Both the position numbers and the translations under genes were made by a program. From the IMG/VR virus record IMGVR_UViG_3300045988_054096, positions 55,944 to 119,943 of that record: a stretch of 64,000 bases of DNA, one strand, 5' to 3'. The DNA is from a virus. The notes below the pieces were generated by a model that was given only the letters and a program-made list of their open reading frames with translations, was not told the DNA's origin and did no database searches. This document shows positions 23,231 through 64,000 of this stretch, piece by piece (the first letter of the stretch is position 1; each line of letters starts with the position of its first letter).

Positions 23231-23950
23231 CTTATACTTCATTTAGTTCTTTATTTAAAAGATTAATAACTTGTTCATCAGAGAGTCTATAATCAACTTC
23301 TATAAGTTTAATATTAGATCTCTTACATAAAGCTCTTAGCAGATTATCTCTAGTCTACTATTTATTGAAATCAGCTACTCCTCCTGAATGAAAGAACGGA
23401 ATATATTGATAATGCTGTACTCCATTGTATTCAATTATATACTTCTTGTTATTAGCAAAAACTACAAAGTCAGGTATAATAATATTTATTCCATTTATAG
23501 TTTTGGGAAGCACTATTCTGACCTAACTTTTATAGGAATACTCATTATCCTCTAGGTATTTCCTAATAAGAGATTCTCCAGAAGTTTCCTAACACCTAGG
23601 GCATCCACATCCCATTAAATGATTATGAGGAGTAACTAGGAAGATACCATGTTTAGGGCAAGTAACTTCAATATAAGAATGCATACCAGTGTATTTCCCA
23701 TATTTAAATCTACTTCCCCATCTAATGTAAGCTCTGCGCTCAAATTCTTCCTAGGAAATTCGGCTGTTTATTCCCCTCTGTTCATAAGAACACTTACGAC
23801 ATCCTCTACCAGACAAATGGTCGCTAGGAGTCTACTAAAATTCTCCATGAATAGGGCAGATTATAGTTACCTTAGTCTTATTCCCCTAATAATTAACTCT
23901 AGAATAATCATAGAAATCTCCATGAACTTTTCTTGCTTTCTCTATAAACT
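23231..23950 (-). CDS. homing-endonuclease-like protein (duplicated CPxHGxF(QQ)TPxxHLxGxGCPxC zinc ribbons + DUF559/PD-(D/E)XK-like C-terminal domain), TAG-recoded
   Basis: single minus-strand frame gives coherent ~235 aa protein ...KVHGDFYDYSRVNY*GNKTKVTIICPIHGEF**TPSDHLSGRGCRKC...CPKHGIFLVTPHNHLMGCGCPRC*ET...PDFVVFANNKKYIIEYNGVQHY...FNK**TRD...NEV with 8 in-frame TAG (incl. two TAG-TAG pairs) and TAA stop at 23231-23233; start codon not resolved. Confidence 0.5.
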
Positions 23951-23979
23951 ACCTGTTTGTTAATTTCTTTTCATCTTTA

Positions 23980-24498
23980 TTATTGATTTTTTGTATTAAG
24001 TAAATCTGCATATTTTACAGCCTCTTTTAGGCTCTTTCCTTCATAGAATCCTTGAAATATATTATTGATGTAAGATTTAGTATTTATATCCATTTTAATT
24101 TTAGGACTATACTTCTTCCACCAATCTATTTCATTTCTAGGATTTCCTCCATAAGTTCTGCAGGCGGCTAGATAATCACAAGCTAACTCTATAGCATATT
24201 TCCTTGGCATCTCAGCAGGAATGCCTCCATCATCAAGACTATGAATCCAATATTCATAGTGATGAGGATTTCTTCCTCTATGATGCAAGAATGTTTCAGA
24301 ATAGCCATTGATGTTTCTCTCATTAGCCAAGAAACTGATTTTATCATCCCAATACTTTATTGAGCGACTAAACTCAGTCCAGTTAAACTTAGACAAATCA
24401 TGCATTATTCCTTGCCAATATAAGCCAACCTGAAAACAATAATAGGCTACCCAAAACTTATGTGTTAATATTCTTTTCAATAGTTTTAATCCCACCAT
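23980..24498 (-). CDS. hypothetical protein
   Basis: 172 aa ORF. Confidence 0.3.
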   Translation of the reverse strand: MVGLKLLKRILTHKFWVAYYCFQVGLYWQGIMHDLSKFNWTEFSRSIKYWDDKISFLANERNINGYSETFLHHRGRNPHHYEYWIHSLDDGGIPAEMPRKYAIELACDYLAACRTYGGNPRNEIDWWKKYSPKIKMDINTKSYINNIFQGFYEGKSLKEAVKYADLLNTKNQ

Positions 24499-24899
24499 GT
24501 CTGCATTCTGTACAGCCTTAACTTATTATATAGGTACCAAGCCTTTGCTTGACGCAAGTAATCTCTCATTGTTGGTTCCTCTAATTTGAGAAAAGTTCCA
24601 AATCTACTAGCATTTTTAATGTTGACGTACTTAACCAGAGTCCATTTGTTGGGATTACCAAGTCCTCCCCATGAAACAGCACTATCTTCCTCCATGATAA
24701 TCCCAAGAAGTTTAATAGCAAGTTTCACTTCTCTAGCAACTCTTTCTGACCCTACAGCTACAGGTTTATCACTAGAATAGAACTCATACATTCTATTCAG
24801 CATTTCTCTCTCAATTTCCAAGTTAAATCCAAAGTCCCAAGGCTGGAACTTCATAGCTGATTTAATTAACTTCTTGTTCTTATTCTTTCTTAGTTTCAT
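24486..24899 (-). CDS. hypothetical protein
   Basis: 137 aa ORF. Confidence 0.3.
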   Translation of the reverse strand: MKLRKNKNKKLIKSAMKFQPWDFGFNLEIEREMLNRMYEFYSSDKPVAVGSERVAREVKLAIKLLGIIMEEDSAVSWGGLGNPNKWTLVKYVNIKNASRFGTFLKLEEPTMRDYLRQAKAWYLYNKLRLYRMQTWWD

Positions 24900-25309
24900 A
24901 ATTTCTGCGAGGCTGCAACAGCCAATTTATCTGCACGTTCATTCCACTTATCACCACTATGTCCTTTAACGTGTTTAAATTCGACATTTGGACATAGTTG
25001 TTTAACACGTTCGAATTGTTTATCGAACTCTTCCCACAGCTTTACATTCTTCTTTCTTTTCCAACCAAGAGATGCACACCCTATGCAATACATACTGTCG
25101 GATATAATAGTGAGAGAGTCAATCGGATTCTTTATGAGTCTAAGCCCAATTATCATAGCAGCAACTTCAGCTTTATTATTAGTACCTTCCAAAAACATTT
25201 TAGAATATTCTAAGATAGGACGGTCATTTTTTAAAATTACTATTCCAATTCCCATTTGGTCTTTGACTGAGCTATAAGCTCCATCTGTGTATATCGTATA
25301 ATTATCCAT
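24896..25309 (-). CDS. rnhA: ribonuclease H (RNase HI)
   Basis: 137 aa; YTDGAYSS...TNNKAEVAAMIIGL...ISDSMY...HVKGHSGDKWNERADKLA matches RNase H catalytic DEDD pattern. Confidence 0.75.
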   Translation of the reverse strand: MDNYTIYTDGAYSSVKDQMGIGIVILKNDRPILEYSKMFLEGTNNKAEVAAMIIGLRLIKNPIDSLTIISDSMYCIGCASLGWKRKKNVKLWEEFDKQFERVKQLCPNVEFKHVKGHSGDKWNERADKLAVAASQKL

Positions 25310-25844
25310 ATTCCCATAAATAATTGTAAGCAGATTTACGTTTTCCAGAGCAACACATAGAAATCAAAGAGTGATTATTTACTCCTATCGTCTTAACAGC
25401 TTCAGCCATACTAGAGTATATTGCTATTACTTCTCCATCAAATGATCTCTGGATAACTTTCTTCTTTCTAGCAGAGTTACCTTTCTCAATTACATTACTA
25501 TAATTTAGATTATTAAGGCTTGTTGACCATTCTAAGTTAGTAGCTCTATTGTTTGACTTATCCTCATCAATATGGTTGACCTGTGGAAGATTCTCTGGGT
25601 TAGGTATAAACGCCTCAGCTACTAACCTGTGAATCTTTGGATTTTTCTTCTTTCCATCCCTCGACAAAGATACGTACAAATATCCTGCACCATCCGAATT
25701 TGGTTTTAAAATCTTTTCTGGGATGGTTCTATGACCAGTTATCTTATGTGAAACGACTCTTGCAAGGCTTTTCACATTACCTATGTTACTAACTTGATAC
25801 AAACCTTCATAATCCTTAATATCCTTCCAAATTTCATTCATCAC
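25302..25844 (-). CDS. HNH homing endonuclease (NUMOD4 + HNH_3)
   Basis: 180 aa; WKDIKDYEGLYQVSNIGNVKSL NUMOD4-like N-terminus; VNHIDEDKSNNRATNLEW HNH motif. Confidence 0.7.
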   Translation of the reverse strand: MMNEIWKDIKDYEGLYQVSNIGNVKSLARVVSHKITGHRTIPEKILKPNSDGAGYLYVSLSRDGKKKNPKIHRLVAEAFIPNPENLPQVNHIDEDKSNNRATNLEWSTSLNNLNYSNVIEKGNSARKKKVIQRSFDGEVIAIYSSMAEAVKTIGVNNHSLISMCCSGKRKSAYNYLWEYG

Positions 25845-25859
25845 ATATCAATGTATAAT

Positions 25860-26461: not shown

Positions 26462-26706
26462 ACTAATAAATTAAAAAGCTCCCTAACTGCGCTCTTGACA
26501 TTACATCGTGGACCGTAGGATTTTACACCAGGGGGATTCAGGTTTGGAGCTTAGCTACTATAATCCCTTATTCACCATGTCCTATTCTCTTGAGAGTTTC
26601 AGAAGGTTCCTCATAGAACCTATCTACAGGCACTATGATTTCGTGTCCTGCGCCTTCTTCAACCTTGGAATCAATAATCTTTAAAGACCACAGAGCTTGA
26701 ATAAAT

Positions 26707-27228
26707 CTAAGCTCTGGATTCTTGCACAGAGTTTCCCTCAGAAGCTCCAACAGCTTTTGGTTGGATTTTATTCTTTCGCTTACGTTTTTGTCCATGATAA
26801 AATTCTCCTTTAAACGAATCCTCGTTGAATCCTAGTCTATCACGAGTGATGATATTCAGTTGTTCCTCTTTTTCCTTTCTCTTAGCCTCTATTTTATAGA
26901 GGATCCACTTATTTTCTTCCTCTTTTCGTTTTTCTTGTTCCCTTTCAAGTTTCCTTCGCATCTTTGCTTGTTCAGCAAAGTACCTATAACATTCTTTGGA
27001 ACCTCGCTCACAAGTATAGCTATCACACTTGTACACTGGAGATATATAGTCGTCAGGTTTTATGCCCTTAGAAGCTAGCTCAAACCTTAGTTTTATGGCT
27101 AGTGTTTTATTGATATAACCTCCAGAGTCCATAATATGTCTATATCGTCTGTAACCAATTCTTCCATAGATGTAGGCATTAACTCTCCAACTGGAATCTA
27201 TTATCTTATAAAGAGGGGTTGGGATCAT
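26707..27228 (-). CDS. hypothetical protein; reading frame stays open ~45 codons upstream of its ATG and may be the C-terminal part of a gene continuing from 27347..27616 through a frameshift
   Basis: 173 aa ORF; upstream in-frame sequence LKLLHGYVDEHEETPGERWPNEYYFDDDRVLQKRERKGRKNKL looks protein-like and abuts the stop of ORF 27347..27616. Confidence 0.3.
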   Translation of the reverse strand: MIPTPLYKIIDSSWRVNAYIYGRIGYRRYRHIMDSGGYINKTLAIKLRFELASKGIKPDDYISPVYKCDSYTCERGSKECYRYFAEQAKMRRKLEREQEKRKEEENKWILYKIEAKRKEKEEQLNIITRDRLGFNEDSFKGEFYHGQKRKRKNKIQPKAVGASEGNSVQESRA

Positions 27229-27346
27229 TTTAGTTATTTTTACGAGTTTATTTTTCCTTCCCTTACGTTCTCGCTTTTGTAGAACCCTATCATCGTCAAA
27301 GTAATACTCATTAGGCCAGCGTTCGCCAGGAGTCTCTTCATGCTCA

Positions 27347-27616
27347 TCAACATACCCATGTAGTAGTTTTAATGGACGGAGAGAACCGTTCTCTTATCTT
27401 TTTAAACACGTATTGATAGTCTTTTCCAACAGACTTTTCCAAGAAGTTATCTATCCATCTATAGAAACTTCTATTAAAATGATCCCAGTAACAATAACCG
27501 TACTGATATTTTAGTCTTTTGCTATGTCTATTTACAGAAGACCTCATACTTCTATGTGTTGGAAGACATATATCCTCCCAATCACTACAATTGTATTGAT
27601 TCAAATGAAGTTTCAT
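27347..27616 (-). CDS. hypothetical protein (possible N-terminal part of frameshift-split gene)
   Basis: 89 aa ORF. Confidence 0.3.
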   Translation of the reverse strand: MKLHLNQYNCSDWEDICLPTHRSMRSSVNRHSKRLKYQYGYCYWDHFNRSFYRWIDNFLEKSVGKDYQYVFKKIRERFSPSIKTTTWVC

Positions 27617-30883: not shown

Positions 30884-30952
30884 ACTTTTGGGATTCGAAC
30901 CTCTTAATTAGAAATTAAGTGTGCTACCATTACACCACATATCCTATAAAAT
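30884..30952 (-). tRNA. tRNA-like, nominal anticodon UCU, Gln-type D-arm, weak T-stem/acceptor (possible pseudo-tRNA)
   Basis: GGATATGTGGTGTAATGGTAGCACACTTAATTTCTAATTAAGAGGTTCGAATCCC; D-arm identical class to tRNA-Gln and the CUA suppressor; acceptor pairing not found. Confidence 0.3.
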
Positions 30953-31039: not shown

Positions 31040-32956
31040 TTACTTCACTTCTTCAAACGTTTCAGGCTTCTCCTCTGACTCTGGCTTTGTCTCGATAGCC
31101 TTCTTGCCAAACATATCCTTGAAGGTCTCCTTCAAAGGAATGCTACGGAGCAGATCCAATGCAGGATTCAAGTTCTCGGCAGTCTTAGCCATGAAGTTAC
31201 CTGCGGTATTCTCGTTACCATACACAGTAACCTCACCAAGATGAACGTGTTCAAACATCTGAGCAGATGCTTCGGCAATACCCTTAAGCTGATCAACAGT
31301 CTTATACTGTACAATCATCTGCGGAGTCATACCACACTCAATCATCTTCTCAACTGCCTTAGCAGGAGCTAACTCAATTGCAGTAATCTTATCAGCTTCA
31401 GCCATAAGAGATGCTCTCTTACCTTCTGCCTCAGCTAACAGTTTCTTCTTGGTACCTTCAGCCTCTGCCTCCATGATTTGCTGAGTAGCTTGAGCTTTCG
31501 CTTCGGCTTCCTTAGTAATCTTAGCTGCTTCCGCTTCTGCTTCCAAGATGGCCTTCTGCTTGATTGCCTCTGCCTCAATTGTAACTTGTTCCTTCTTCTT
31601 CTGAGCAGGAACAATTACTTCGGCGTGCAATTTTGCTTCAGTTGCCTTAGCTGCAACCTCATTAACTTCAACTTGCTTTTCCTCACGAGTCTTAGCAACT
31701 TCCATTTCTGCATTGACCTTAGATACACCTGCTACACGCTGTGCTTCTGCCTCAGCCTTAGCAGCTTCTCCCTTAGCCTTAGATACTTCAATGGTTGCTG
31801 TCTGTTCAGCTACGCCAGCTTGCTTGTCAGCCTCAGCCGCACGCTGTCTCTTCAGAGATTCATACTCTGCAACCTTAGCTTCCTGCTCATTGATAGCCTT
31901 CTGAGTTTCTGCTTCCTGCTCTTGCTCGGCTTTAGCCATACGAATTTGCTTCTGAGCCTCTGCCTCTGCTTGAGCTGAAGCTGCTTCTGCTTCAGATTTA
32001 GCTACAGATGCTACTGCTTCTGCCTTACGAGCTGCTGTAGCTGCTTCTGCTTCAGCCTGTGCCTTAGCTACATTAGCTGCCTTCTCAGCCTGCTGATTTG
32101 CTACACCAGATTCCTTAACCTTGTCAGCTTCTGCCAACTTGATTTCCTTCTCCTGGTTAATTTCAGCTACACGTACCTCTTGCTGTTGCTTAGTTTCAGC
32201 TACCTGAGTGGCTCTTTCCTTCTCTGCATTTGCTACAGCAATTTGACGCTCCTTCTCAGTATCTGCGATCTGGATGTCTCCTTTCTTCTTCTCTTCAGCA
32301 ATGTCAGCAAGTGCCTGAGCTTCTGCCTTAGTAGCAGCTTTCTTACCAAGATTTCTGATGTAGTTTGCATCATCAGTAATATCAGCATTGTTGATATTGA
32401 TGATACTGAAACCAACCTTGTTCAACTCAGTTTCAATATTCTCTTTAGCTTTGCCCAAGAACTTAACACGGTCAGCATTGATTTCTTCAATAGTCATTGT
32501 AGCCATCAGACTTCTTACCTCACCAATAAGAATATCCTTGATTTGGTCAGAAATTTCTTGTGGACTTGACGTTAAGAATCTACTTGCTGCATTCTGCATA
32601 AGAGTGTCAGTAGTTCCAATACCAGTCGTTAAAGTCACAGGAATAGTAACCTTAATCATCTGACTAGAAACTCCTGCTACAGATGCCTGAATTTGAATAG
32701 GTTTAAGAGACATCTTCCTCCAATCCTGGATCACAGGGAATACAAATGTACCTCCACCATGAATAATCTTGGAAGGAAGAATCACAGTTTCACTCTTCCC
32801 AGTAGTGGGATTGGTTACTGACTTCTTGCCAGCTTTACCAAACACTACTAAGATTTCATCACTTGCGCAACGACGATAGCGCGACATCAGACTAATAAGG
32901 GTCAAGATCACGAGAACTACTATAATTCCCGCGATAATTAAACTTGAAGTAAGCAT
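31040..32956 (-). CDS. flotillin-like protein (SPFH/band-7 domain with long Ala/Glu/Lys-rich coiled coil)
   Basis: 638 aa; N-terminal TM, SPFH domain, extended AEAEA/KAEAEA coiled-coil repeats (source of spurious plus-strand shadow ORFs). Confidence 0.55.
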   Translation of the reverse strand: MLTSSLIIAGIIVVLVILTLISLMSRYRRCASDEILVVFGKAGKKSVTNPTTGKSETVILPSKIIHGGGTFVFPVIQDWRKMSLKPIQIQASVAGVSSQMIKVTIPVTLTTGIGTTDTLMQNAASRFLTSSPQEISDQIKDILIGEVRSLMATMTIEEINADRVKFLGKAKENIETELNKVGFSIININNADITDDANYIRNLGKKAATKAEAQALADIAEEKKKGDIQIADTEKERQIAVANAEKERATQVAETKQQQEVRVAEINQEKEIKLAEADKVKESGVANQQAEKAANVAKAQAEAEAATAARKAEAVASVAKSEAEAASAQAEAEAQKQIRMAKAEQEQEAETQKAINEQEAKVAEYESLKRQRAAEADKQAGVAEQTATIEVSKAKGEAAKAEAEAQRVAGVSKVNAEMEVAKTREEKQVEVNEVAAKATEAKLHAEVIVPAQKKKEQVTIEAEAIKQKAILEAEAEAAKITKEAEAKAQATQQIMEAEAEGTKKKLLAEAEGKRASLMAEADKITAIELAPAKAVEKMIECGMTPQMIVQYKTVDQLKGIAEASAQMFEHVHLGEVTVYGNENTAGNFMAKTAENLNPALDLLRSIPLKETFKDMFGKKAIETKPESEEKPETFEEVK

Positions 32957-33984: not shown

Positions 33985-34461
33985 TTAGGATTGCCTTGTA
34001 AAATCAGCAACTTTGCAACATAAATTTTTGAAATCAGAGTCGGATAATCCATTTTTCATGATATTAATGGGTTTGTATACCCACTGTACATTTCCAATTT
34101 CATATCCTTTGTCAGAATCAATTCTATCAACTGAAGCATTGGATTCCCCTTTCGGAGTATCTACTACTTGTAGGTCTATACCTGTATAAGCACATTTGAA
34201 GTTTTGCTTCTGCAATACTTTATATAGATCTTCCAAGGTCACACTACAATCAATAATTTTACCTCCACGAATAAGATTATCTTTTATAGAGGATAACCAT
34301 ACAACATGCATTCCGTTTTCATCAAAATAGCCTCTGGACTTTCGCTTATCTGGATAATTATTTTTCCTTCCACACTTTCTACAACATTTAAATTGCATTT
34401 TCTCTAGTTCTGAAAGGCGTTTATAATCAATATTTCCACATCTGCATTGAAATTTTACCAT
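33985..34461 (-). CDS. HNH endonuclease
   Basis: 158 aa; N-terminal Cys cluster, C-terminal ASVDRIDSDKGYEIGNVQWV HNH motif. Confidence 0.5.
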   Translation of the reverse strand: MVKFQCRCGNIDYKRLSELEKMQFKCCRKCGRKNNYPDKRKSRGYFDENGMHVVWLSSIKDNLIRGGKIIDCSVTLEDLYKVLQKQNFKCAYTGIDLQVVDTPKGESNASVDRIDSDKGYEIGNVQWVYKPINIMKNGLSDSDFKNLCCKVADFTRQS

Positions 34462-34652: not shown

Positions 34653-35549
34653 TTACTTTCGACGTGTAGGTATTCTCCATTTAGCTCTCCTCTCAACGTC
34701 ATTAGGATGAGTGAGATCGCCAAGGAAGGGTCTTCCCACAAGATCCTTGTACATCTGACCAAAGTCACGATATGGTCTCAACTTTGAGCAATAATCCTTT
34801 CCATTAGCTTTGTATTCAGAACTTCTAAAGGTTAATGGTGGGACTAGTTGAGAAATGTCCTTTTCCAATAACCTGCAAAGCGCTTGAGCTCTGATAATTG
34901 CATTGGGATCCAATGGAAACCCTCCAAGGTGGATATGTAGAGAACACTCCTTGTTAAAAGCAGTATACTCTTTTAAACTCTTCAATTCTTGTTTTAGAAG
35001 AGACAATCCATCATTACCATTAAGGACAACCGTAGAGTACTCTAATCCGGAGATTGATCCATCTCGCAAAGGAATTAGTCCGTCCCTGAAACAAATATCC
35101 TCTGGTATGTATCCCATAGAAGTTTCAAATTCTAACCCAAATGTATACTTCAGGTACTTAGACAGAGTGTATTCAGTATCCTTATCAAGCACCCTCTGTT
35201 TTCCATCGAAAAGGCAAAAGCTTTCAACAGCTTCATATCTTTTATCAAAGGAATACGGAAACCCTCCTTGTCCTTTTACATTTGTCTCATAAACAAGAGC
35301 TTCTTCTGGAAAATCAATAGTAGATATGTATATGCCTTTACTCTGACTATACACTAAGTGATCTTTCAAGAGCTCTTTATCTCCCCTAAAGACTTCCGTT
35401 CCACTAGAAGTTTCAATCATAACATCTACCACAGTCTCTCGTCTACTAGAATAACCCAATACGACCAGCCCGGGAAGATGTTTCACTACAACACGTTCAC
35501 ATTCTGAAAGTGGTAGAAATTGTTTAGTTATTTCATCAAAGACTTGCAT
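34653..35549 (-). CDS. amidoligase (glutamine-synthetase-like COOH-NH2 ligase, Pfam Amidoligase_2-like)
   Basis: 298 aa; FGLEFE...RDGSISGLEY...CSLHIHLGG signature. Confidence 0.55.
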   Translation of the reverse strand: MQVFDEITKQFLPLSECERVVVKHLPGLVVLGYSSRRETVVDVMIETSSGTEVFRGDKELLKDHLVYSQSKGIYISTIDFPEEALVYETNVKGQGGFPYSFDKRYEAVESFCLFDGKQRVLDKDTEYTLSKYLKYTFGLEFETSMGYIPEDICFRDGLIPLRDGSISGLEYSTVVLNGNDGLSLLKQELKSLKEYTAFNKECSLHIHLGGFPLDPNAIIRAQALCRLLEKDISQLVPPLTFRSSEYKANGKDYCSKLRPYRDFGQMYKDLVGRPFLGDLTHPNDVERRAKWRIPTRRK

Positions 35550-36871: not shown

Positions 36872-36874
36872 AGG

Positions 36875-49051: not shown

Positions 49052-49060
49052 CAATGCTTG

Positions 49061-49677: not shown

Positions 49678-49890
49678 ACACACGAAGTGTGCATTGTCTC
49701 TTTAAGGATAGAGACTATCCTGCCAGGTCGGGTCATTGTAATGAGTCTACAGCAAGTGTGTCAGCTGATAGTGTGTCAACAGCTACAGTATCAACCTTTA
49801 CTGAATCAACTTGTTCAACATTCTTTGCAGTGTTACCACATGAAGTGAACATTGCTCCACACATCAGTGCAAAACTAATTAAAAGTGCTT

Positions 49891-50620: not shown

Positions 50621-50631
50621 CATTTCTAATG

Positions 50632-51078
50632 TTACTTAGCTCCATCACACAACGAGAATAAATAGTCAAATTTGTTAACATTTTGAATAAATGTCTCACA
50701 TTCTGACTTCAATCCAGCATATAATGGATTTTCAGGAATTTGTTTGTAGAAGCTAAGAGTTCCTGCTTTTACTTCATCAACGAATTGTTGAGCATTCTAA
50801 GCATTACCTGGATCTCCTTTAACATCACTCGGTCCTAAATGTACACTTAGTACTCCCATGATGCCTTCTGCAACAGTATCCTAATAATCTGAGATAACTT
50901 CTAAGAACTCATCCAAATACACATGGACGTTCTTCTTAGGAGCTGCCCAGTGTAAGTTCTTACATTTTGTTTTCCATCCTTCCAACTTACAGATAAAGTC
51001 GAGGAAAGGTTTAAGGCCTGATACCTATCCTCCATTCTGAAATACTGGAGTTCTTGGAACTAGTGGTACTATACTCAT
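50632..51078 (-). CDS. Dps/ferritin-like protein, TAG-recoded (3 in-frame TAG)
   Basis: MSIVPLVPRTPVFQNGG*VSGLKPFLDFICKLEGWKTKCKNLHWAAPKKNVHVYLDEFLEVISDY*DTVAEGIMGVLSVHLGPSDVKGDPGNA*NAQQFVDEVKAGTLSFYKQI...CDGAK, TAA stop; Dps-like LHW...YLDEF...D.VAE pattern. Confidence 0.55.
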
Positions 51079-51576: not shown

Positions 51577-52032
51577 TCATATCTCTAAATTATTTTCTAT
51601 TCGTTTAACTTTATCAACATAGGTTGGATCTGTTGCATACTTGATTCTTATAAGGAAATCATAGTAATCCTCACCATCTCTATGTTTGTACTCAATCATG
51701 TTTTTATATCCTTCTATACAATCAGTCCAGTGATCAAATGAATAATATTCTTTTCTCTTGCTATTATACAATCCGAACAGATTATTTCTTTTGATACAGT
51801 GAGCTGATGTGTAGTTTCCACTCTCTAACTTAGCTTGAGCTAGCACGATTCGTGGGTGCTTTATATTATAATACTCTAAGGCTAAATATAGAGTTGAATC
51901 ACTTAACTCTTTATGCAGAAATGAAGTATCTTGGACTTCAATTCTTGTTTGTTGAGGAATTACCTCAATATCGTGGAAACTCATGGATATGAAGCAAAAT
52001 AAAATTATTAGTAATATTCTTTTCATAAACAC
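51577..52032 (-). CDS. secreted peptidoglycan hydrolase (mannosyl-glycoprotein endo-beta-N-acetylglucosaminidase family) - endolysin candidate
   Basis: 151 aa; signal peptide MFMKRILLIILFCFISMS; VLAQAKLESGNYTSAHCIKRNNLFGL matches glucosaminidase AQAxLESGWG...NNLFGI motif. Confidence 0.55.
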   Translation of the reverse strand: MFMKRILLIILFCFISMSFHDIEVIPQQTRIEVQDTSFLHKELSDSTLYLALEYYNIKHPRIVLAQAKLESGNYTSAHCIKRNNLFGLYNSKRKEYYSFDHWTDCIEGYKNMIEYKHRDGEDYYDFLIRIKYATDPTYVDKVKRIENNLEI

Positions 52033-53693: not shown

Positions 53694-53939
53694 TTATCCT
53701 AAAAACTTTATACCACCTACACACGTATGATATGACTTCTTACCATTCTTTTCTAAGATATAGTAGTAATCCCTATAAGTATAAGACATACCTATAAGGG
53801 TTTTTACTTCTCCTGTAGGCTCTACTACTACTTGCTGGCCAAAATGCTTACCACATTCTCTAAACCATTCTGGGAAGTCTTTATCGAAGCCATCCTTGAT
53901 TTCATTATTGGCTAAGGCAGACCCGTCGTAAATACCCAC
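53694..53939 (-). CDS. hypothetical protein
   Basis: 81 aa ORF. Confidence 0.25.
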   Translation of the reverse strand: MGIYDGSALANNEIKDGFDKDFPEWFRECGKHFGQQVVVEPTGEVKTLIGMSYTYRDYYYILEKNGKKSYHTCVGGIKFLG

Positions 53940-54075
53940 CTCTTCCCCCCCCCATTATCATAATCCTCAATTCTATGAAAATCTTTCTTGTAGTGTTCAT
54001 ATTCCCAAATACAATACCTATCTCTATAAGTTCTATCTTTGGGATCTTTAGCCAAAGCGGGTTCAGCTAATTTCT

Positions 54076-54456
54076 TTAATTCTTCGATAAGCTCCTTTCT
54101 ACCCATGTTGATGATTTAGTTTTTACTGGCTTGGTTTCAACAAGATTTACAAACCGGCATTCAAGCATTTTCACACCAGTTTCTACAAACTCTACATCCC
54201 ACCCTCTGTATCCACTATCTCCAATAATCTTTACGGGAGTTCCAGCAGGATATATAATCATCTCATTAAAATTGTTAGGAGTTTTATACCATTCCTTTGG
54301 CTCTCCTAAATAAACAATATCTCCAATCTTCATTTTGATATAATTTTTACATTTTGCGCACGCTACTGGATTCGAACCAGTGATGGGGCTTTTGCCACGG
54401 CAGATTAACAGTCTGCTGCCTTCGTCCACTCGGCCAAACGTACAGAATGCTACCAA
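54076..54456 (-). CDS. hypothetical protein
   Basis: 126 aa ORF; note 3' region overlaps tRNA at 54357..54443 so true start is probably downstream. Confidence 0.2.
   Translation of the reverse strand: MVAFCTFGRVDEGSRLLICRGKSPITGSNPVACAKCKNYIKMKIGDIVYLGEPKEWYKTPNNFNEMIIYPAGTPVKIIGDSGYRGWDVEFVETGVKMLECRFVNLVETKPVKTKSSTWVERSLSKN
54357..54443 (-). tRNA. type II (long variable arm, Ser-like GCC...GGC D-arm) tRNA carrying anticodon GUU (Asn codons)
   Basis: GTACGTTTGGCCGAGTGGACGAAGGCAGCAGA CTGTTAA TCTGCCGTGGCAAAAGCCCCATCACTGGTTCGAATCCAGTAGCGTGC-G; perfect anticodon stem. Confidence 0.45.
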
Positions 54457-54696: not shown

Positions 54697-54877
54697 ATAC
54701 CAGAGTGCAATCACCCACTTGTCTGACCTAACGTCGCAGAGACCAATTTACGGCATTCATAACCCAAAGTATGCGTAGGGCTGCTCTCTAAGAGCAGAAT
54801 CAAAGTAATACAGAGTACATTTAGGGATTTGAACCCATTCCTTTAAAGTGTGACAAACTTCATTGTTAAACCATAGA

Positions 54878-54906
54878 AATTGCTGATGTACTCTTGTTAT
54901 TAACCC
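54878..54906 (+). promoter_or_regulatory. conserved intergenic motif copy, variant (GAAATTGCTGATGTACTCTTGTTATTAAC)
   Basis: consensus match with one substitution. Confidence 0.3.
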
Positions 54907-55013
54907 AAAAACAATCATCAAAGAAATCAGATAGCGTTTTGTGCTAATTATTTTACCTCGCTAACACTGACGAGTCTCTTTATAAAACCCAAAATTATAA
55001 GAAATCAGTATAA

Positions 55014-55042
55014 TTAATTTTGCTGTACGCTATCTTATAATC
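55014..55042 (+). promoter_or_regulatory. conserved intergenic motif copy (AATTTTGCTGTACGCTATCTTATAATCTA)
   Basis: consensus match. Confidence 0.35.
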
Positions 55043-55066
55043 TAATTCAAAAAGTCATGTTTTTGA

Positions 55067-55138
55067 GCGGGGATAACGGACTCGAACCGTCGCCTCAACC
55101 TTGGAAGGGTTTTATGCTACCACTAACACCAATCCCGC
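55067..55138 (-). tRNA. tRNA-Gly (anticodon UCC)
   Basis: GCGGGATTGGTGTTAGTGGTAGCATAAAACC CTTCCAA GGTTGAGGCGACGGTTCGAGTCCGTTATCCCCGC. Confidence 0.5.
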
Positions 55139-55445
55139 GAAAGATTTCAATGCAAAAGTAGTAATAACTCCAGAAACTCCAAATCTAGATTATGTTAATT
55201 TTTGTAAAATCTCTAATCTATTGGTTTTCAGTAATTATTACTACTCTATGCTCAGTATTCCACATAAGGTGGATTGTTATCATCAGAATCATGCTTCTCA
55301 CACAGCCACCAGATGAATGCAGTGGCTAAGATAAAGAGTATTGTTACATACATACTTTTAATTTTTCGTTACAGAAAACAAAGATAGTAATAGATCTGGA
55401 TTGCTCCAAAAATATTACTATCTAAGTTGTTATTTTAGGGTGTAT

Positions 55446-55865
55446 TTAGAGTTTCTTATACAGTCCCTTGTACGGAGCAAAGACTTCAAAGCCGTTACTT
55501 TTCAGTAAATTTACAGCTTCCTCAATTTCCTTACTCTTGAGCACTTCTTCTCTCTTCTTTCGAGCATAATGAGCACTTGCATACCCGTTTGCCTTCTTTT
55601 GATAACGAACATAAATACCCTGAAGTGTCTGATGATGAATTGGAAGCTGATTCTTCCATGTCCACATATCACCTTCCACTCTTACTAAAAGGCCAGAGTT
55701 TCTAAATTCCGCAAAGAACAAAGGATTTGATGGAATGCCACAGGCCTTGAGCGCATTCCGGAAATCTTCCTCAGCTAAGGGAAGATCTCCAGATTGAATA
55801 CTGTGCTTTCTGAACTCGTTTAGTGCCGCTATGTGATCCATGGCGACAAAGGCATTCTTTCTCAT
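55446..55865 (-). CDS. hypothetical protein
   Basis: 139 aa ORF. Confidence 0.3.
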   Translation of the reverse strand: MRKNAFVAMDHIAALNEFRKHSIQSGDLPLAEEDFRNALKACGIPSNPLFFAEFRNSGLLVRVEGDMWTWKNQLPIHHQTLQGIYVRYQKKANGYASAHYARKKREEVLKSKEIEEAVNLLKSNGFEVFAPYKGLYKKL

Positions 55866-56251
55866 AACTCGGCAGTGTTCAAAAGGTTGTACAGTGTGTT
55901 CTTCAAACTCTCAACGATTACCTCGTCGTTAAGCTGCCGACCTTGGAACTTGTCCAAAATGGCATTACGAATGCCCTTTCTCTTTGCCATTTCCTTGTCA
56001 TATTCAGCCTTTCTCTTTGCCATTTCCTTGTCATATTCAGCCTTTCGCGCATCATACAGAACTTTCTCTTTCTTCCTGTCCTCCTTCTGAAGATTGATGT
56101 ATGTTTTCTCTGGCTCTACAGGAGTGCCTGGAAGAACAACATCACAAAGTCCATAGTTCTTATTGGCTTGAACTTGTACTTTGTAGGGAGAAAAGCCATT
56201 CTTGTTGTTTGTAACTTTAAGATTCAAAACGATAGATTTTGCTCCTATCAT
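55862..56251 (-). CDS. hypothetical protein with internal duplicated peptide KEMAKRKAEYDKEMAKRK
   Basis: 129 aa ORF spanning the 33-bp tandem repeat. Confidence 0.3.
   Translation of the reverse strand: MIGAKSIVLNLKVTNNKNGFSPYKVQVQANKNYGLCDVVLPGTPVEPEKTYINLQKEDRKKEKVLYDARKAEYDKEMAKRKAEYDKEMAKRKGIRNAILDKFQGRQLNDEVIVESLKNTLYNLLNTAEL
55978..56043. repeat. perfect 33-bp tandem duplication (TTCTCTTTGCCATTTCCTTGTCATATTCAGCCT x2)
   Basis: two identical adjacent copies 55978-56010 and 56011-56043 inside a coding region. Confidence 0.8.
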
Positions 56252-56379
56252 AGCTATTTACCCTCTAGCAGGATTTATTAGTGCTAGAATTAAATTCCGT
56301 TTACTTTCCTCCGGCAACGTCAACTAAGTTTAACCACGTGTTACTGGTCTTCGCACGAGCTTAGCAAAGGTTAAAATAG

Positions 56380-56465
56380 TGAGAGTGAGACGAGTCGAAC
56401 GTCTCTTTGAGAATCAAACTCCATAGTATTATCCGAGTATAGTCACTAGTAAACTATACACTCCC
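56380..56465 (-). tRNA. tRNA-like, type II length (86 nt), anticodon arm not resolved
   Basis: GGGAGTG TA TAGTTTACTAGTGACTAT...variable hairpin TTTGATTCTCAAA...AGACGTTCGACTCGTCT CACTCTC; good acceptor/T-arm. Confidence 0.35.
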
Positions 56466-56530
56466 TTGATGGCTACAGCTTCGCATTCTGTAGCCTTACC
56501 CAAAATTGGGATTCATGGTTGCAATTGTAG

Positions 56531-56605
56531 TAGGGAGTGTTGGATTTGAACCAGCATCACTACATTATGGACCTGATAGTATGTTCACCATTACACCAAC
56601 TCCCA
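56531..56605 (-). tRNA. tRNA-like, anticodon arm not resolved
   Basis: TGGGAGTTGGTGTAATGGTGAACAT...GCTGGTTCAAATCCAACACTCCCT; acceptor and T-arm present. Confidence 0.3.
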
Positions 56606-59118: not shown

Positions 59119-59436
59119 TTAATAAACATATTTCCCTACCTTTTTATAAAATTGGTAGTTAACCTATACACTACCAGGTTCCTAACACTTACACTTTGAT
59201 ACCCTTGTTAGGGTATTTCGTATCAATTTTCAGATGCTCGTCAGAAAGTTTTTAGTGCTAAAATATTTTTGTACTCTCTAATTTATGTTTGTAACATATT
59301 TTTGTTTGATACTATTATCTCACAAATTCTGAGTGAAAATTATTTTTGTTCAATTTTCAATGAAAAGTGGGTGTGATTTGTAGAGAGAAAGCCATTTGAT
59401 GCATGGTTTTCACCATCGCAGCTCACTCACATCACA

Positions 59437-59700
59437 TCAATTGAACATCATGTATACAACCACACAAATTGCTACAACACAAAGTATAAAGAATATAGTC
59501 TGTTCTTTCTCTGTAGGCTCGTCCATGATCTAAACTATTAAAACTTTAAGTATCTTCCACCAATCTCCTATACATTTCAACATCCAATATCCTATTATAC
59601 CTTTTGGATAAAAAGTATCAGGATAAATGGATTGGAGACTCCCATCCTCATTGCGAATCAGAGAGTCCCCAACCTTAGTTCCACGAATGCACTTTATCAT
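59437..59700 (-). CDS. small membrane protein, TAG-recoded (1 in-frame TAG), start overlaps upstream stop (ATGA)
   Basis: MIKCIRGTKVGDSLIRNEDGSLQSIYPDTFYPKGIIGYWMLKCIGDWWKILKVLIV*IMDEPTEKEQTIFFILCVVAICVVVYMMFN, TGA stop; C-terminal TM. Confidence 0.35.
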
Positions 59701-60170
59701 GCAGCAGCTACTACAATGTCAATTGTAGGAATCTGCGTATTCATGAGACTAGTAGTGCCAAAGCGAAGAGTACGAATAGTTTCCATGTTCGTTACCTTCA
59801 CTGTCTTACCGGCCAGTGCACGCATAGCTTCCTCAACAGTACCATGCTTACGATACTCTTCAGCTGCAGTACCAAGAGTAAACTTACGTTCACCTGTACT
59901 TGTACCGTCCTCGTTGTACACAGTACGAGACTTAGTAAACGTGGAAGGATAGAACCTCTTCGCATTGCCGTCAGCCAGAGTTACCCAGATATACTGAGCA
60001 GTATTATCACCAATTTTCTGCTCATATACTTCGAACTCCGTTGGGAATGTAAACTGATCACCAACTTCCAGTGCTACGTTTTCCAAACTACGTACACCAC
60101 CCTTAAAACCAGTGACTTTCTTGTCACCATTTGCGAGAGCTCTTGCTTTCTCGACTTCTAACTTTGCCAT
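59697..60170 (-). CDS. hypothetical protein
   Basis: 157 aa ORF. Confidence 0.3.
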   Translation of the reverse strand: MAKLEVEKARALANGDKKVTGFKGGVRSLENVALEVGDQFTFPTEFEVYEQKIGDNTAQYIWVTLADGNAKRFYPSTFTKSRTVYNEDGTSTGERKFTLGTAAEEYRKHGTVEEAMRALAGKTVKVTNMETIRTLRFGTTSLMNTQIPTIDIVVAAA

Positions 60171-60323
60171 AATACAAAAGTTTTAAATGATTAATAAATA
60201 AAGTTATATTCTCTTTTTAAGTGTGAGAAATATGATTTCACTTTTAAATGAAAAAAGAAAATTTTTGAAGCGAAGTCTATACGCTAAGTTAATGTCGCCG
60301 TCTATACACTTGGCTAGGTTATA

Positions 60324-60340
60324 AGAGTGTAAGTATATTT
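60324..60340. repeat. direct repeat TATATTTGGCTAGGTT (copy 1; related copy at 60297-60312)
   Basis: identical 16-17 nt copy at 61424-61440; the pair brackets the GC-rich ORF 60719..61174. Confidence 0.6.
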
Positions 60341-60372
60341 GGCTAGGTTGTTTATCAGATAAAATTAGTTAT

Positions 60373-60648
60373 TTAGATAATAGTAGAGAAAAGCTAAGGA
60401 AAAGAAAAGGGCAAATCCCACTAATGTGAGAAATGCCCTTTATTCTATCGTTTGAGTTTCAGTTGCTGAAATCTTGCTCTGGCTTTTCTTCCATTATCAT
60501 ATCTTTCAATGATAATAGAAACTGGGGAAGAAATTTCTATTGTATAGGAGAATGCGAATTGTCCAAGAATAGTTATTCTTCTTCCGTATTTGTCGATGAA
60601 TTGTCCACGAATCTGACCAGTGCAATTTGCTTGATTGTAAGTTTTCAT
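60373..60648 (-). CDS. hypothetical protein; track ORF ends at TAG and may continue through 3 TAG codons to TAA at 60373-60375
   Basis: ...QQLKLKR*NKGHFSH*WDLPFSFP*LFSTII then TAA. Confidence 0.25.
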
Positions 60649-60718
60649 AATGTGTAAATGTTAGGAGTGAATGAATAAAAGAGCAGTTTAACGACTTGCT
60701 TAGGTCGGTGGAATTAGA

Positions 60719-61174
60719 TTATTCCATGAAGTTCAGTTCCACAAGGAAGCTGGCAACAGTCCGACCGTCTTTGGTCAGCGATGCGTAAGGCACGCGATTG
60801 ACGACGACCTTCTTGTCCTTGCAGCCATCCACAATGGCTTGCAGGATTTCCCCATTGGTGTTGTGTGCAGCAATCTGCTCACGACAGAACTTGTTGAAAG
60901 TTCCGTCAGGAGTAACTACCGTACCGTCTGCCTTAACACGGCTGCGAAGCACAGTGCTAAGGAACAGACTGCCCACACTAGTGGTCAGCACAGGATTGAG
61001 GTAGGCATCTTTCGACACCTTGCCGTCCATCTCGGCTTTCTCGTAAGAGAAGCCCGAAACGGTGAATTGCACATTGTGCTGGAATGGAGAGTTGCCCCGC
61101 TTGATGCTTGTAGAAGCGTTAGCGGTTTGAACTTCGTTTGCCTCGGCTGTCTGGAAACCAGTAAGTCTTGCCAT
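60719..61174 (-). CDS. hypothetical protein encoded in a GC-rich (about 50 percent) island
   Basis: 151 aa ORF; local composition sharply different from the ~33 percent GC of the rest of the window; no TAG. Confidence 0.35.
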   Translation of the reverse strand: MARLTGFQTAEANEVQTANASTSIKRGNSPFQHNVQFTVSGFSYEKAEMDGKVSKDAYLNPVLTTSVGSLFLSTVLRSRVKADGTVVTPDGTFNKFCREQIAAHNTNGEILQAIVDGCKDKKVVVNRVPYASLTKDGRTVASFLVELNFME

Positions 61175-61423
61175 AATGTAAAGTGTTAGGTCTGTGGTTG
61201 CAGTTAGTGAACCACCAAGTTTAGCCCATTTGCTTTGAAACAGGCAAAGTCGTGCAGTAGCTTAACGTCCGACTGCAAACGGGACGCTACTCGAAGCCGC
61301 TGACGACGAGGACGAGCTGACAGTGCTCGATTCGATATATGTATATATATCTATATAATTATAGTTGTATATATAGGATAGGTTTTATATTTATAGTGTC
61401 ATAAAATTTTCGAAGAAAATTTT

Positions 61424-61440
61424 TATATTTGGCTAGGTTA
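61424..61440. repeat. direct repeat TATATTTGGCTAGGTTA (copy 2)
   Basis: matches 60324-60340 and 60297-60312; adjacent AT-rich TATATA low-complexity stretch 61318-61400. Confidence 0.6.
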
Positions 61441-61666
61441 TAATCATTTTCATTTTCCATTTGAGACCCCGGAGGGGGTGAAAATGGTAGTGTACTCCCC
61501 CGTATATAACATTCTAAAAATTTTATTTATAGAATATTATTCAGCCAATATATAATCTCTACCTTACTGTATATAGAGAATCCTATCTTAAATTCGGAGA
61601 CAAATAATACATTTCATCCGGAGTCATATTATTATCATACATTTCTTTTACCAATGGAATAATTCT

Positions 61667-62002
61667 CTAACGAATTTCGTTTTTATTAGTAAAGTATTGG
61701 TAATCCAATTCACTTTCCAAACCCATAGGGGAGGGGGATTTTAATATCTTATCATTTAAATATTCTACTACATGGAACTCACTTTGATTATATTGTCTAT
61801 GTCCGAACTCGTGCATAATAACATTCTCTATGTGAGAATCGTTTGATTGTTCTCTATTCATATTAATGTTAAGAGCTATGGTTTCTCTCTTAGATATTCC
61901 TTTCTTACTAGTTACATCATCAAACAACTTAAATACATTATCATCTTTAATAGATGTAGTAGCTCCAAGTATTCTGTCTAATTCTATTGGATCATATTCC
62001 AA
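61667..62002 (-). CDS. HEXXH zinc-metallopeptidase-like protein (ImmA/IrrE-like?); apparent TTG start, possibly fused by frameshift with upstream ORF 62003..62158
   Basis: 111 aa with HEFGH motif; upstream 50-codon ORF ends TGA overlapping. Confidence 0.35.
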   Translation of the reverse strand: MEYDPIELDRILGATTSIKDDNVFKLFDDVTSKKGISKRETIALNINMNREQSNDSHIENVIMHEFGHRQYNQSEFHVVEYLNDKILKSPSPMGLESELDYQYFTNKNEIR

Positions 62003-62157
62003 TCCTTCTTCTTCTAAATCTATTTACCCAGAAATCACTATAATAGAATCGTTCTACACTTTCTAGAACTTCATCTAGTCTGCCTCCTAAGTAGCTAGAT
62101 ACCTCCTTATAAGTATCAATACATTGTGGTCTTGAAATAAGTTTATTTAGTTCCATA

Positions 62158-62400: not shown

Positions 62401-62470
62401 GTCCTCCCCCAAGGATTCGAACCCTGACCAAGTGGGTTAGAGCCACCTGTGCTACCATTACACCAGAGGA
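62401..62470 (-). tRNA. amber suppressor tRNA (anticodon CUA), Gln-like body
   Basis: TCCTCTGGTGTAATGGTAGCACAGGTGG CTCTAAC CCACTTGGTCAGGGTTCGAATCCTTGGGGGAGGA-C; perfect anticodon stem, loop C-U-CUA-A-C; D-arm GGTGTAATGGTAGCAC shared with tRNA-Gln(UUG) at 51134-51205. Confidence 0.65.
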
Positions 62471-62506
62471 GAATAAGGTTGCAGGAATTTCACCTGCAAA
62501 GTATTA

Positions 62507-62947
62507 TTAGAATCTGTTATAGACATCAACCAATTCATTGATTTTATCTTTAAGATGATCACAAATTATTTGTGAAGATTGGCCAATCATTTCACTAACT
62601 TCAGCAGCTTCTTCTTCAGTAAAAGTATCCTGATTTAGAAGTTCATCAAATCTTTGTATATCAAAGTACTGATCCATTTCTTCAGCAGCTTCAACGAATA
62701 AGCAATCATCAAGCTCTTCAATACGTTCTTTATATTCTTTGATAATCTCCTTTATGCAGGAATCATCAAATCCTTCAACAGCATCTTCATTGTCAGAAGT
62801 TATACTAATGTTAATAACTCCATCTTTCTTGTTTAGAGCAATTTTAGTGCCATTCACTTCTAAACTCTCTTCAGCCCCATCTGGAATTGCTACATTAAAT
62901 ATATTGATGAGGTCAAATAATGCTTTAACTTCTTGTAGATTTTTCAT
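62507..62947 (-). CDS. hypothetical acidic protein
   Basis: 146 aa ORF. Confidence 0.3.
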   Translation of the reverse strand: MKNLQEVKALFDLINIFNVAIPDGAEESLEVNGTKIALNKKDGVINISITSDNEDAVEGFDDSCIKEIIKEYKERIEELDDCLFVEAAEEMDQYFDIQRFDELLNQDTFTEEEAAEVSEMIGQSSQIICDHLKDKINELVDVYNRF

Positions 62948-63109
62948 GTTGTTTTATTTTACACTGCAAATATATACAGTATTTCAGTAAGTAAAAAGTT
63001 AATTATTGTTATTTCTTATTATCTTTTGTTTCACTACTGCAAGTATAGTAACTAAATCTAGAATATAAAAGTGAATTTATCTTAAAAGATATTAATCTTA
63101 CTCTCGTTC

Positions 63110-63310
63110 TTATAATTGATATTCTCTTAGATTATTATAGGAGATTTCTACACCTCTATCTATATAGAATCTTACATCTCCATCTTTAGAAAGATGTCTA
63201 TCACATTCTTCCTCAGAAGGGAAATGATCAAGTTCAAATCTAATAGTTTTTAAAGGTCTAGAATGTTTACCTTTAGTCCAAATCCATACGTCAATCATAA
63301 AATTTCTCAT
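63110..63310 (-). CDS. hypothetical protein
   Basis: 66 aa ORF. Confidence 0.25.
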   Translation of the reverse strand: MRNFMIDVWIWTKGKHSRPLKTIRFELDHFPSEEECDRHLSKDGDVRFYIDRGVEISYNNLREYQL

Positions 63311-63340
63311 AGTAATTAAGTTTTAAAAATCGTTAGTTAT

Positions 63341-64000
63341 AAGTTTATCTACAAATCTATAGTATACCTCCATTCTTTAAAGTGAATCCCTATGCTGTCC
63401 ATTCAGGAACAGTCTACATATTAAAATCTATCATCTTTGGTCTTCTTAGCCAGTCTAGACCAACATTACCAGGAGCTACATCGTCTACAACTACTTGTCC
63501 ATTTGTGTAAGCTCTATACTATACATTTGGGTCGTTAACTCTTCTAAATCCAGACCTCTCCATAGCTCTATCTAATTTACTAGCGTACTTTGGAAATGTC
63601 TATTCAGTTAAGATTCTTAGTTTTCTCTAAACATAAGTAGGTAATTTGGTTCCTCTGTCTTTTACATATCCTATATACTTACTCGGAACTGTGTTAGGTA
63701 TCTAGTTCCTAGCAGCCATTTCTTCTACTGGAATTGAAGTCATTTTACCAACAGTAGTTGGAGTATTATCAACAACTACAGCTTCTGCACCTCCGCCTAT
63801 AGGATTCTTAGAATACTATTTAAGAGTTCCTAAAGCTCCATTCTTAGAAGGAGCTCTGAATACTCCTTTAGTAAGTCTATTATAGAGCTATGCAGACTTT
63901 CTTCCAGCTGTACCGACTGCTCCTGCTATTCCCGCACCTGCCACATTACTAGCATAATCAAAATTAGATTGTATAGCAGCCTAACCTTCTGGAGTTGTAT
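63341..64000 (-). CDS. Gly/Ala-rich structural-like protein (tail fibre/virion protein candidate), heavily TAG-recoded, 5' part beyond window end
   Basis: one minus-strand frame reads ...NVAGAGIAGAVGTAGRKSA*LYNRLTKGVFRAPSKNGALGTLK*YSKNPIGGGAEAVVVDNTPTTVGKMTSIPVEEMAARN*IPNTVPSKYIGYVKDRGTKLPTYV*RKL...GGIL*ICR then TAA; 10 in-frame TAG, no TAA/TGA. Confidence 0.5.

Follow-up and report, generated by a model that had tools for sequence, protein, structure and literature searches.

Gut phages that are alternatively coded (code 15, in which the amber codon TAG stands for glutamine) were reportedly described by Ivanova in 2014 and by Devoto in 2019. In Escherichia coli, amber suppressors of the supE type are glutamine tRNAs with a CUA anticodon that insert glutamine at UAG in competition with release factor 1 (RF1), and one group I intron of a bacterial tRNA gene encodes the PD-(D/E)XK enzyme I-Ssp6803I. 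For gut phages it is known that TAG is read as glutamine, that the phages carry a tRNA with a CUA anticodon, tRNA(CUA), and that recoding is partial and falls mainly on structural and lysis genes (10.1101/2021.08.26.457843; Peters et al., PMC9523058). From another clade, a group I intron endonuclease that is recoded and lies within an early gene has been described (Borges et al., preprint 10.1101/2021.08.26.457843), and in the published Agate example the intron endonuclease uses TGA and sits in an early gene (10.1101/2021.08.26.457843). In Lak phages, replication genes are mostly recoded (10.1101/2021.08.26.457843) and introns occur in tRNA genes (PMC8346664); group I introns are also known in the anticodon loops of bacterial tRNAs (review, PMC3984707). 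Here we report on a 64-kb stretch of viral DNA (64,000 nucleotides, nt; positions 55,944 to 119,943 of IMG/VR record IMGVR_UViG_3300045988_054096, hereafter the window), in which TAG appears to be a glutamine codon in a small set of genes and a stop codon in others.

In-frame TAG codons and the residue they align with

The window was scanned for open reading frames (ORFs) with only TAA and TGA as stops, and TAG-bearing minus-strand ORFs appeared in stretches otherwise without genes. ORF length alone is weak evidence of recoding, since chance TAG-bearing ORFs arise in the wrong frames of real genes, as at 31852-32388 on the minus strand (seven TAG, inside the SPFH gene) and at 26701-27372 on the plus strand (also seven TAG). 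Real ORFs were told from chance ones by full-length homology across the TAGs, by exchange of TAG with CAA or CAG and by interruption through TAG only. The six recoded genes contain 36 in-frame TAG codons and no TAA or TGA in 1,158 codons, with TAG making up 3.1% of codons overall (1.4-5% gene by gene) and 58% of the glutamine codons. An earlier note on this DNA had claimed that several coherent genes are readable only with TAG as a sense codon, and this is borne out by homology, by the codon swaps and by the count of 36 TAG to zero TAA or TGA. The base following the sense TAGs had the background distribution, with no suppression context seen.

Because TAGs of the window swap with CAA or CAG in orthologues, including at an invariant glutamine on a contig where the gene fits the standard code, TAG most probably stands for glutamine (code 15) in these genes, and elsewhere the window appears to fit the standard code. 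The interchange runs in both directions and was seen in orthologues of four different genes. Alignment of the read-through proteins to homologues, a check that the earlier note had proposed, gave glutamine as the residue aligned with TAG, and its interpretation of TAG as sense in a subset of genes with the standard code elsewhere is supported.

The first of two DUF723-type endonuclease genes (Table 1) encodes two DUF723/CapR zinc-ribbon repeats and a C-terminal nuclease-like domain, and in tblastn it matched annotated homing endonucleases of standard-code phages of Salmonella, Klebsiella, Acinetobacter, Staphylococcus and Escherichia, with E values down to 2e-32 over 92% of its length. The earlier note had placed this gene at 23231-23950 with eight TAGs; the gene is real, but its first 20 codons and one TAG had been missed. 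As described there, a TAG-TAG pair within CPIHGEFxxTPSDHL lies opposite CPKHGIFLVTPHNHL of the second repeat. The second TAG of this 'GEFxxTP' pair (TAG60) aligns with Q in the standard-code phage endonucleases and with TAG in the homologue from Lak-B4. In orthologues on the contigs L007 (91% identical) and L008 (60%), TAG of the window stands opposite CAA, and CAG or CAA of the window stands opposite TAG; eight of the nine TAG positions are kept in L007. The second DUF723-type gene is split over two overlapping frames, 49891-50355 (six TAG) and 50237-50623 (five TAG), with an insertion or deletion near 50340-50350, such that the TAG-bearing gene that had been given as 49891-50620 is present but frameshifted. 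It matches an endonuclease in L008. In L018 it is missing, and the Dps-like gene is followed there directly by a homologue of 49733-49894; this absence fits a mobile gene, as expected.

The Dps-like protein has more than 1,000 homologues, and TAG66 occupies the position of the invariant Q of an SDYQD motif. In this column L015, where the standard code gives a correct translation of the gene, has CAG, and L017 and L018 have CAA; conversely, CAA132 of the window is TAG in L018. The count of three TAGs and the recoding given in the earlier note hold for this gene, whereas the Dps identity finds weak support: DUF5856 matched with an E value of 0.0024, and the family profile searched against PDB matched Dps chains only, at E values of 0.002-0.15.

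Two frameshifts disrupt the HExxH-motif gene in the window, one near 62007-62017 and one near 61565-61580; they lie ~450 nt apart and jointly restore the original frame. Relative to L019, both of its TAGs are kept as TAG, and a CAA of the window is TAG in L019. At the first TAG position Q is conserved (EIRQRI) in distant homologues. The JGI gene call for this protein (P0282) stops at TAG. Neither the HExxH gene nor the small ORFs had a Pfam or PHROGs match.

At the right edge of the window, a gene with orthologues in IMG/VR contigs (53-63% identical, 14-16 TAG) is 99% identical at the protein level to its counterpart in L019, with nine TAGs shared and one replaced by CAA. The ten TAGs that had been assigned to a Gly-rich structural gene at 63341-64000 are borne out (217 codons, 63345-63998), but the label 'structural' is without a family match: the protein matched nothing in Pfam or PHROGs, nor in tblastn against 50,697 phage records. 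This gene appears to be the last of a heavily recoded module that continues past the window. In the relatives L013 and L019 the upstream module carries 6-17 TAG per gene and includes an NlpC/P60 tail-associated lysin with 10-17 TAG.

Of the genes listed in the earlier note, those starting at 23232, 38883, 49891 (frameshifted), 50632 and 63345 therefore stand, the one at 59437-59700 is unproven and the HExxH gene is added. The 59437-59700 ORF has no family match in Pfam or PHROGs and no homologue in L019, where this part is variable, and it could end at its TAG instead. L019 is otherwise ~90% identical to the window, and the stretch 59152-61522, which fails to align, is apparently a strain-variable accessory region that holds the small ORFs 59437-59700 and 60373-60648. 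A codon-usage log-odds score gave only moderate separation of frames over short segments and cannot settle either of these two ORFs. The same score was non-coding for TAG-bearing ORFs overlapping tRNAs (43307-43708, 47072-47398, 48896-49360, 54757-55146 and 38330-38716), which were rejected. A further candidate, 53804-54106 with four TAGs, was also rejected, as L018 has a single TAG-free gene here and the window is frameshifted at a run of nine G. In total, four frameshifts in three genes were found relative to intact homologues in relatives (50340-50350; 53945-53953, the G9 run; 62007-62017; 61565-61580), and these may be assembly errors or genuine gene decay.

Two TAG-free genes, one of them for an endonuclease of another type, were also noted. 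The gene at 25302-25841 (minus strand) encodes an HNH-type homing endonuclease (NUMOD4 and HNH_3) and, unlike the DUF723 and PD-(D/E)XK ones, has no TAG; that at 33985-34461 (minus strand) is HNH-like by eye, with no Pfam match.

The window has a guanine-plus-cytosine (GC) content of 37%, with T exceeding A and C exceeding G on the plus strand. The minus strand carries every long ORF, the 27 RNA genes called by ARAGORN and the Rfam hits. All features in the earlier gene list are minus-strand genes, and its coordinates were usable but slightly off.

Table 1. Positions in the window of the features discussed in the text
Position	Strand	Feature	Size	In-frame TAG	Remarks
1-23230	-	TAG-free replication and nucleotide-metabolism module			93% covered by standard-code ORFs; syntenic with L008
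9181-9726, 15394-15576, 17876-18184, 26707-27228, 49391-49570, 52180-52779	-	TAG-terminated genes			
23232-24011	-	Free-standing homing-endonuclease-like gene	259 codons	9	Ends in TAA
38683-39386	-	tRNA-Ser(UGA) gene, class II	91 nt spliced		Split in the anticodon loop by a predicted group I intron
38883-39326	-	Intron-encoded PD-(D/E)XK homing endonuclease	147 codons	2	Ends in TAA
43633-43710	-	Candidate amber-suppressor tRNA 1, anticodon CUA	78 nt		35% GC; D stem of 3 base pairs
49891-50623	-	Second DUF723-type endonuclease		11	Paralogue of 23232-24011
50632-51078	-	Conserved DUF5856/Dps-like gene	148 codons	3	Ends in TAA
51133-51205	-	Ordinary tRNA-Gln(UUG)			Reference for the identity of suppressor 2
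53707-54106	-	Not recoded; TAG-free gene broken at the G9 run 53945-53953			Four TAGs out of frame
59437-59700	-	Small ORF, hydrophobic C-terminus	87 codons	1	Weak coding score upstream and downstream of the TAG
61541-62156	-	HExxH-motif gene	About 215 codons in relatives	2 (genuine)	Absent from the earlier note's list
62401-62472	-	Amber-suppressor tRNA 2, anticodon CUA, Gln-like			Rfam 53 bits
63345-64000	-	Right-edge gene, C-terminal part (63345-63998)	217 codons of ~300 in relatives	10	Ends in TAA

Suppressor tRNAs and the intron-split tRNA-Ser gene

Two tRNA(CUA) genes, unmentioned in the earlier note, were found in the window with ARAGORN and Rfam. Suppressor 2 has U1 as its first base and shares the D arm TGGTGTAATGGT(T)AGCACA with the phage's own tRNA-Gln(UUG); it was probably derived from a tRNA-Gln. 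The gene lies directly downstream of the recoded module and of a conserved 146-codon gene, with the tRNA array on its other side, and its orthologues hold the same slot in L010, L013 and L019. Suppressor 1 is atypical. It scored 38.5 bits against the Rfam tRNA model, its anticodon region has 11 nt instead of 9 nt (an arm 2 nt over consensus, forming either a stem of six 'base pairs' with an A-A mismatch or a 9-nt loop) and it resembles no isoacceptor in particular. No orthologue of suppressor 1 was found in the relatives examined, and an exact-pattern search of IMG/VR returned three chance matches, none of them a tRNA. In both tRNA(CUA) genes the D loop contains GG and the T loop reads GTTCGAATC, which is canonical and unlike tRNA-Pyl; ARAGORN labels both 'Pyl' on the anticodon alone.

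The third recoded endonuclease lies within another tRNA gene of the array. With introns allowed, ARAGORN called a tRNA-Ser(UGA) gene with an intron of 613 nt (about 38738-39350), a gene that default tRNA prediction misses. The Rfam group I intron model (Intron_gpI, RF00028) matched at 38742-38945 with 61.1 bits against a gathering score of 50, the full model being covered. At the splice junctions (tctt|g...tag|g), U34 can be the last base of the 5' exon and G is the last base of the intron; the joined exons fold as the cloverleaf of a class II tRNA-Ser(UGA). Furthermore, L018 carries an intron-less allele of this tRNA-Ser at 17938-18030, in the same place between tRNA-His and tRNA-Trp, with compensatory differences in the stems. 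The ORF inside the intron matched Pfam PDDEXK_5 (1.7e-14) and phrog_5018 (5e-23), and its sole match in PDB was 2OST (E value 1.5e-4 over 58 residues), which we take to be I-Ssp6803I, the enzyme of the Synechocystis tRNA-fMet group I intron. The earlier note had listed an ORF at 38883 with two TAGs; that ORF is real, and to it we add the context of a homing endonuclease within a group I intron of tRNA-Ser(UGA). Intron and ORF together are thus predicted to form a group I intron with a homing endonuclease in a tRNA anticodon loop, and with two in-frame TAGs the ORF would depend on amber suppression.

Other RNA genes of the minus strand were noted beside these. A phage transfer-messenger RNA lies in the tRNA array at 40663-41152 (Rfam RF00023, 97 bits over the full model; ARAGORN tag VQQKDISHCA). 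A tRNA at 43718-43791 with anticodon ACU is labelled Ser; its 74-nt body is of class I, without a long variable arm, and its amino-acid identity is doubtful. Rfam tRNA matches of 35-50 bits at 49599-49671, 47456-47520 and 30890-30944, the last only 55 nt long, were uncalled by ARAGORN. An ARAGORN call of a 'tRNA-Asn with a 1,444-nt intron' at 55067-56605 was rejected as an artefact fusing two tRNAs.

TAG-free genes, TAG as a stop codon and the phage lineage

Eighty minus-strand genes, amounting to 14,938 codons, are complete standard-code ORFs without an in-frame TAG. Among them, Pfam identified the large subunit of ribonucleotide reductase, a DnaB-like helicase (DnaB_C), a ResIII/DEAD helicase (ResIII/Helicase_C), a beta-ketoacyl synthase (ketoacyl-synt) and an SPFH/Band_7 protein, in agreement with the earlier note, which had given the large replication and metabolism genes as TAG-free; a primase homologue, AAA ATPases, RNase H and a GATase and COOH-NH2 ligase pair are likewise TAG-free. 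This pair is adjacent at 35528-37660 (minus strand) and consists of a glutamine amidotransferase-domain protein of 447 amino acids and a phiEco32-like COOH-NH2 ligase of 261. The 580-residue protein at 44908-46650 (minus strand), previously called Ro60-like, matched DUF2828/DUF7788 only. The next ~1.7 kb (46651-48365) hold few ORFs and two weak tRNA-like matches, with no Y-RNA family at the Rfam threshold. In addition, 51577-52026 (minus strand) encodes a TAG-free glucosaminidase-domain protein with a hydrophobic N-terminus, possibly a cell-wall hydrolase, and departs from the view that recoding affects lysis genes.

TAG is the terminator of 6 of the 80 standard-code genes, making it the rarest stop. 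In 49391-49570 (minus strand) the terminal TAG is directly followed by TAA, and a relative ends at the same residue with TAA; 15394-15576 likewise has a relative ending at the same residue with TAA, and the end of 17876-18184 is only a few residues from that of its homologue in L008. Because six standard-code genes end in TAG and relatives of two of them end at the same residue, TAG appears to serve as both stop and glutamine codon in one genome, depending on the gene. The 60-codon gene 15394-15576 is in frame with 14725-15264 (minus strand), with no TAA or TGA between them, and late amber suppression could yield a fusion protein of the two. Reading the TAG at codon 61 of the ORF 14725-15576 as a sense codon was rejected, as this TAG closes a separate gene of 60 codons, and the homologue of that gene has TAA as its stop.

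Many contigs of 165-182 kb in ENA, Logan, JGI and IMG/VR carry related or near-identical proteins, and gene order is conserved between the window and relative contigs, L018, L019 and L008 among them. The phage is of gut type, and its lineage is abundant in public metagenomes, with genomes of ~170-180 kb. A megablast search of 24 kb of the window against the 50,697 phage records returned no close record, with tRNA-sized matches only. Nucleotide similarity to Lak megaphages was limited to ~500 nt at 66% identity in the DUF7873 gene at 44114-44905 (minus strand), the sole detectable match within the tested segment. Because its relatives measure 165-182 kb, only these ~500 nt are similar and megablast gave no match, the phage is not a Lak megaphage.

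Readings of the two-way use of TAG and comparison with known systems

We consider it highly probable that the use of TAG in two ways, its decoding by phage tRNA(CUA) and the published timer model belong together as one explanation. Most genes of the window, covering replication, nucleotide and lipid metabolism, many small genes and the tRNA/tmRNA array, are free of in-frame TAG, and the standard machinery of the host would be able to translate them. The recoded minority comprises the two zinc-ribbon endonucleases and the one encoded in the intron, the Dps-like gene, the HExxH gene and the last gene of the tail-lysin/structural module. Phage tRNAs with a CUA anticodon would supply decoding of sense TAG, and full-length recoded proteins would be made only once the suppressor tRNA accumulates and beats RF1 of the host. 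In-frame TAG might in this way act as a translational timer that delays late proteins and potentially harmful endonucleases. We infer the timing and regulation of the recoded genes after the published model.

Several points weigh against this explanation. Suppressor 1, with its atypical structure, may not work or may not carry glutamine, and neither release factor 2 (RF2) or another release factor nor a glutaminyl-tRNA synthetase turned up among the 58 window proteins scanned with Pfam. The absence of TAG from the 80 genes follows in part from their having been called as standard-code ORFs, and its force as an argument comes from length and coverage; given the length of the ORFs and the 93% coverage of positions 1-23230, these genes cannot use TAG as the recoded genes do. 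The division of standard-code early genes and recoded late or accessory genes put forward in the earlier note holds in part, for the TAG-free replication module and for the recoded NlpC/P60 module of relatives, but the functional split is unclean, since the glucosaminidase and NUMOD4/HNH genes are TAG-free, and the recoded Dps-like gene is not obviously late. Genes for capsid, terminase and tail of this phage are located outside the window. Finally, three recoded or neighbouring genes are frameshifted, and some of these are possibly decaying genes or assembly errors.

It is possible, though we hold to it only tentatively, that no timer is involved and that drift or shared ancestry produced the pattern: once a suppressor is present, neutral CAG-to-TAG changes would accumulate in genes unneeded before its expression, and the endonucleases would circulate among code-15 phages. 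Orthologous endonucleases on other contigs are also recoded, TAG and CAA or CAG swap freely, recoding does not track function cleanly, and relatives differ, as with mobile elements, in whether they have the 49891-50623 endonuclease and the tRNA intron. Such drift is compatible with TAG as glutamine and disputes the regulatory part only. The frequent retention of TAG positions (nine of ten in the right-edge gene relative to L019, eight of nine in the endonuclease relative to L007) speaks against it, although closeness of the sequences could explain this.

In a more far-reaching variant, which we regard as unlikely, the suppressor tRNA would be a gate for the selfish elements of the phage, and the atypical suppressor 1, with its anticodon arm 2 nt too long, might give TAG a second reading that is not glutamine or depends on context. 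The three homing endonuclease genes would then be made only after expression of tRNA(CUA), while TAG would still end early genes. One of the three is encoded within the tRNA-Ser intron, and the tRNA array around it also holds a suppressor.

A complete, genome-wide code 15 is rather improbable. TAG would then never be a terminator, the TAG-free genes would reflect codon preference and the six TAG ends would be read through; consistent with this, TAA or TGA follows within 0-11 codons of the terminal TAG in five of the six genes, and TAG is the rarest stop. However, in 49391-49570 and 15394-15576 the TAG falls exactly at the TAA of a relative, and read-through of the latter would enter the next gene in frame. 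The 14,938 codons without TAG, against 3.1% TAG in the recoded genes, are also hard to explain except by selection for compatibility with the standard code.

We find it very unlikely that TAG is decoded ambiguously or as an amino acid other than glutamine, for instance through suppressor 1 or as pyrrolysine. The 'Pyl' labels given by ARAGORN to both tRNAs derive from the anticodon, suppressor 1 has no isoacceptor likeness and an extended anticodon arm, and in more distant homologues some TAGs stand opposite E, K, A, S, T or L. In conserved columns, however, TAG aligns with Q, and the swaps in close orthologues are with CAA or CAG only, other codons occurring just at variable sites. Pyrrolysine decoding in particular was rejected, as the loops of both tRNA(CUA) genes are canonical (GG, TTCGA) and lack the tRNA-Pyl architecture, TAG aligns with glutamine and the Pfam scan of window proteins revealed no pyl genes. 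That the TAG-bearing ORFs are pseudogenes or sequencing errors is scarcely credible and was rejected: three genes of the region do carry frameshifts, but the frames are interrupted by TAG only and never by TAA or TGA, the same TAG positions recur in independent assemblies and the proteins are conserved across the TAGs.

The pattern of standard-code early genes and recoded late genes has already been published (Borges et al.), and this phage adds a case. The earlier note held that the particular set of recoded genes was worth documenting; it is less novel than supposed, a recoded intron endonuclease having been published for another clade. Specific to the present phage is the combination of these elements in one 64-kb stretch, together with a recoded endonuclease intron in a tRNA gene of an array that bears a suppressor. 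It offers a clean and checkable instance of partial amber recoding in a widespread lineage of ~175 kb, with hundreds of near-identical proteins in public assemblies, and it adds a case in which TAG appears to serve as terminator of early genes and as glutamine codon in other genes of the same genome. Annotation under the standard code truncates the recoded genes, mislabels the suppressor tRNAs 'Pyl' and misses intron-split tRNA genes. The mobile endonucleases, one of them in a tRNA intron, share in the recoding, which fits the published idea of a delay in making late or harmful proteins without extending it.

With the published code-15 gut phages the window has in common the equivalence of TAG and glutamine codons, a tRNA(CUA), partial recoding, replication genes compatible with the standard code and probably, judging by the neighbouring module in relatives, a heavily recoded structural/lysis module. 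In contrast to those phages, no release factor was found among the scanned window proteins, and it is a tRNA gene that harbours the intron endonuclease, which uses TAG. The Lak megaphages of Prevotella share TAG as glutamine, a tRNA(CUA), large tRNA arrays and introns in tRNA genes, and Lak-B4 additionally carries a recoded homologue of the DUF723 endonuclease; unlike Lak, the relatives of the present phage measure 165-182 kb rather than ~540 kb, and its replication genes are TAG-free. The likeness to crAss-like and Lak phages drawn in the earlier note is therefore apt as to mechanism, but does not extend to the phage itself being a Lak megaphage. The supE-type suppressor has the same combination of a tRNA-Gln body and a CUA anticodon; here the suppressor has a dedicated gene in the phage, which keeps its position in relatives and serves dozens of sense TAGs. 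The Synechocystis tRNA-fMet intron is, as here, a group I intron in a tRNA anticodon loop that encodes a PD-(D/E)XK homing endonuclease, whereas in the window the intron interrupts a phage tRNA-Ser(UGA) gene, the ORF has two TAGs and the sequence similarity is low.

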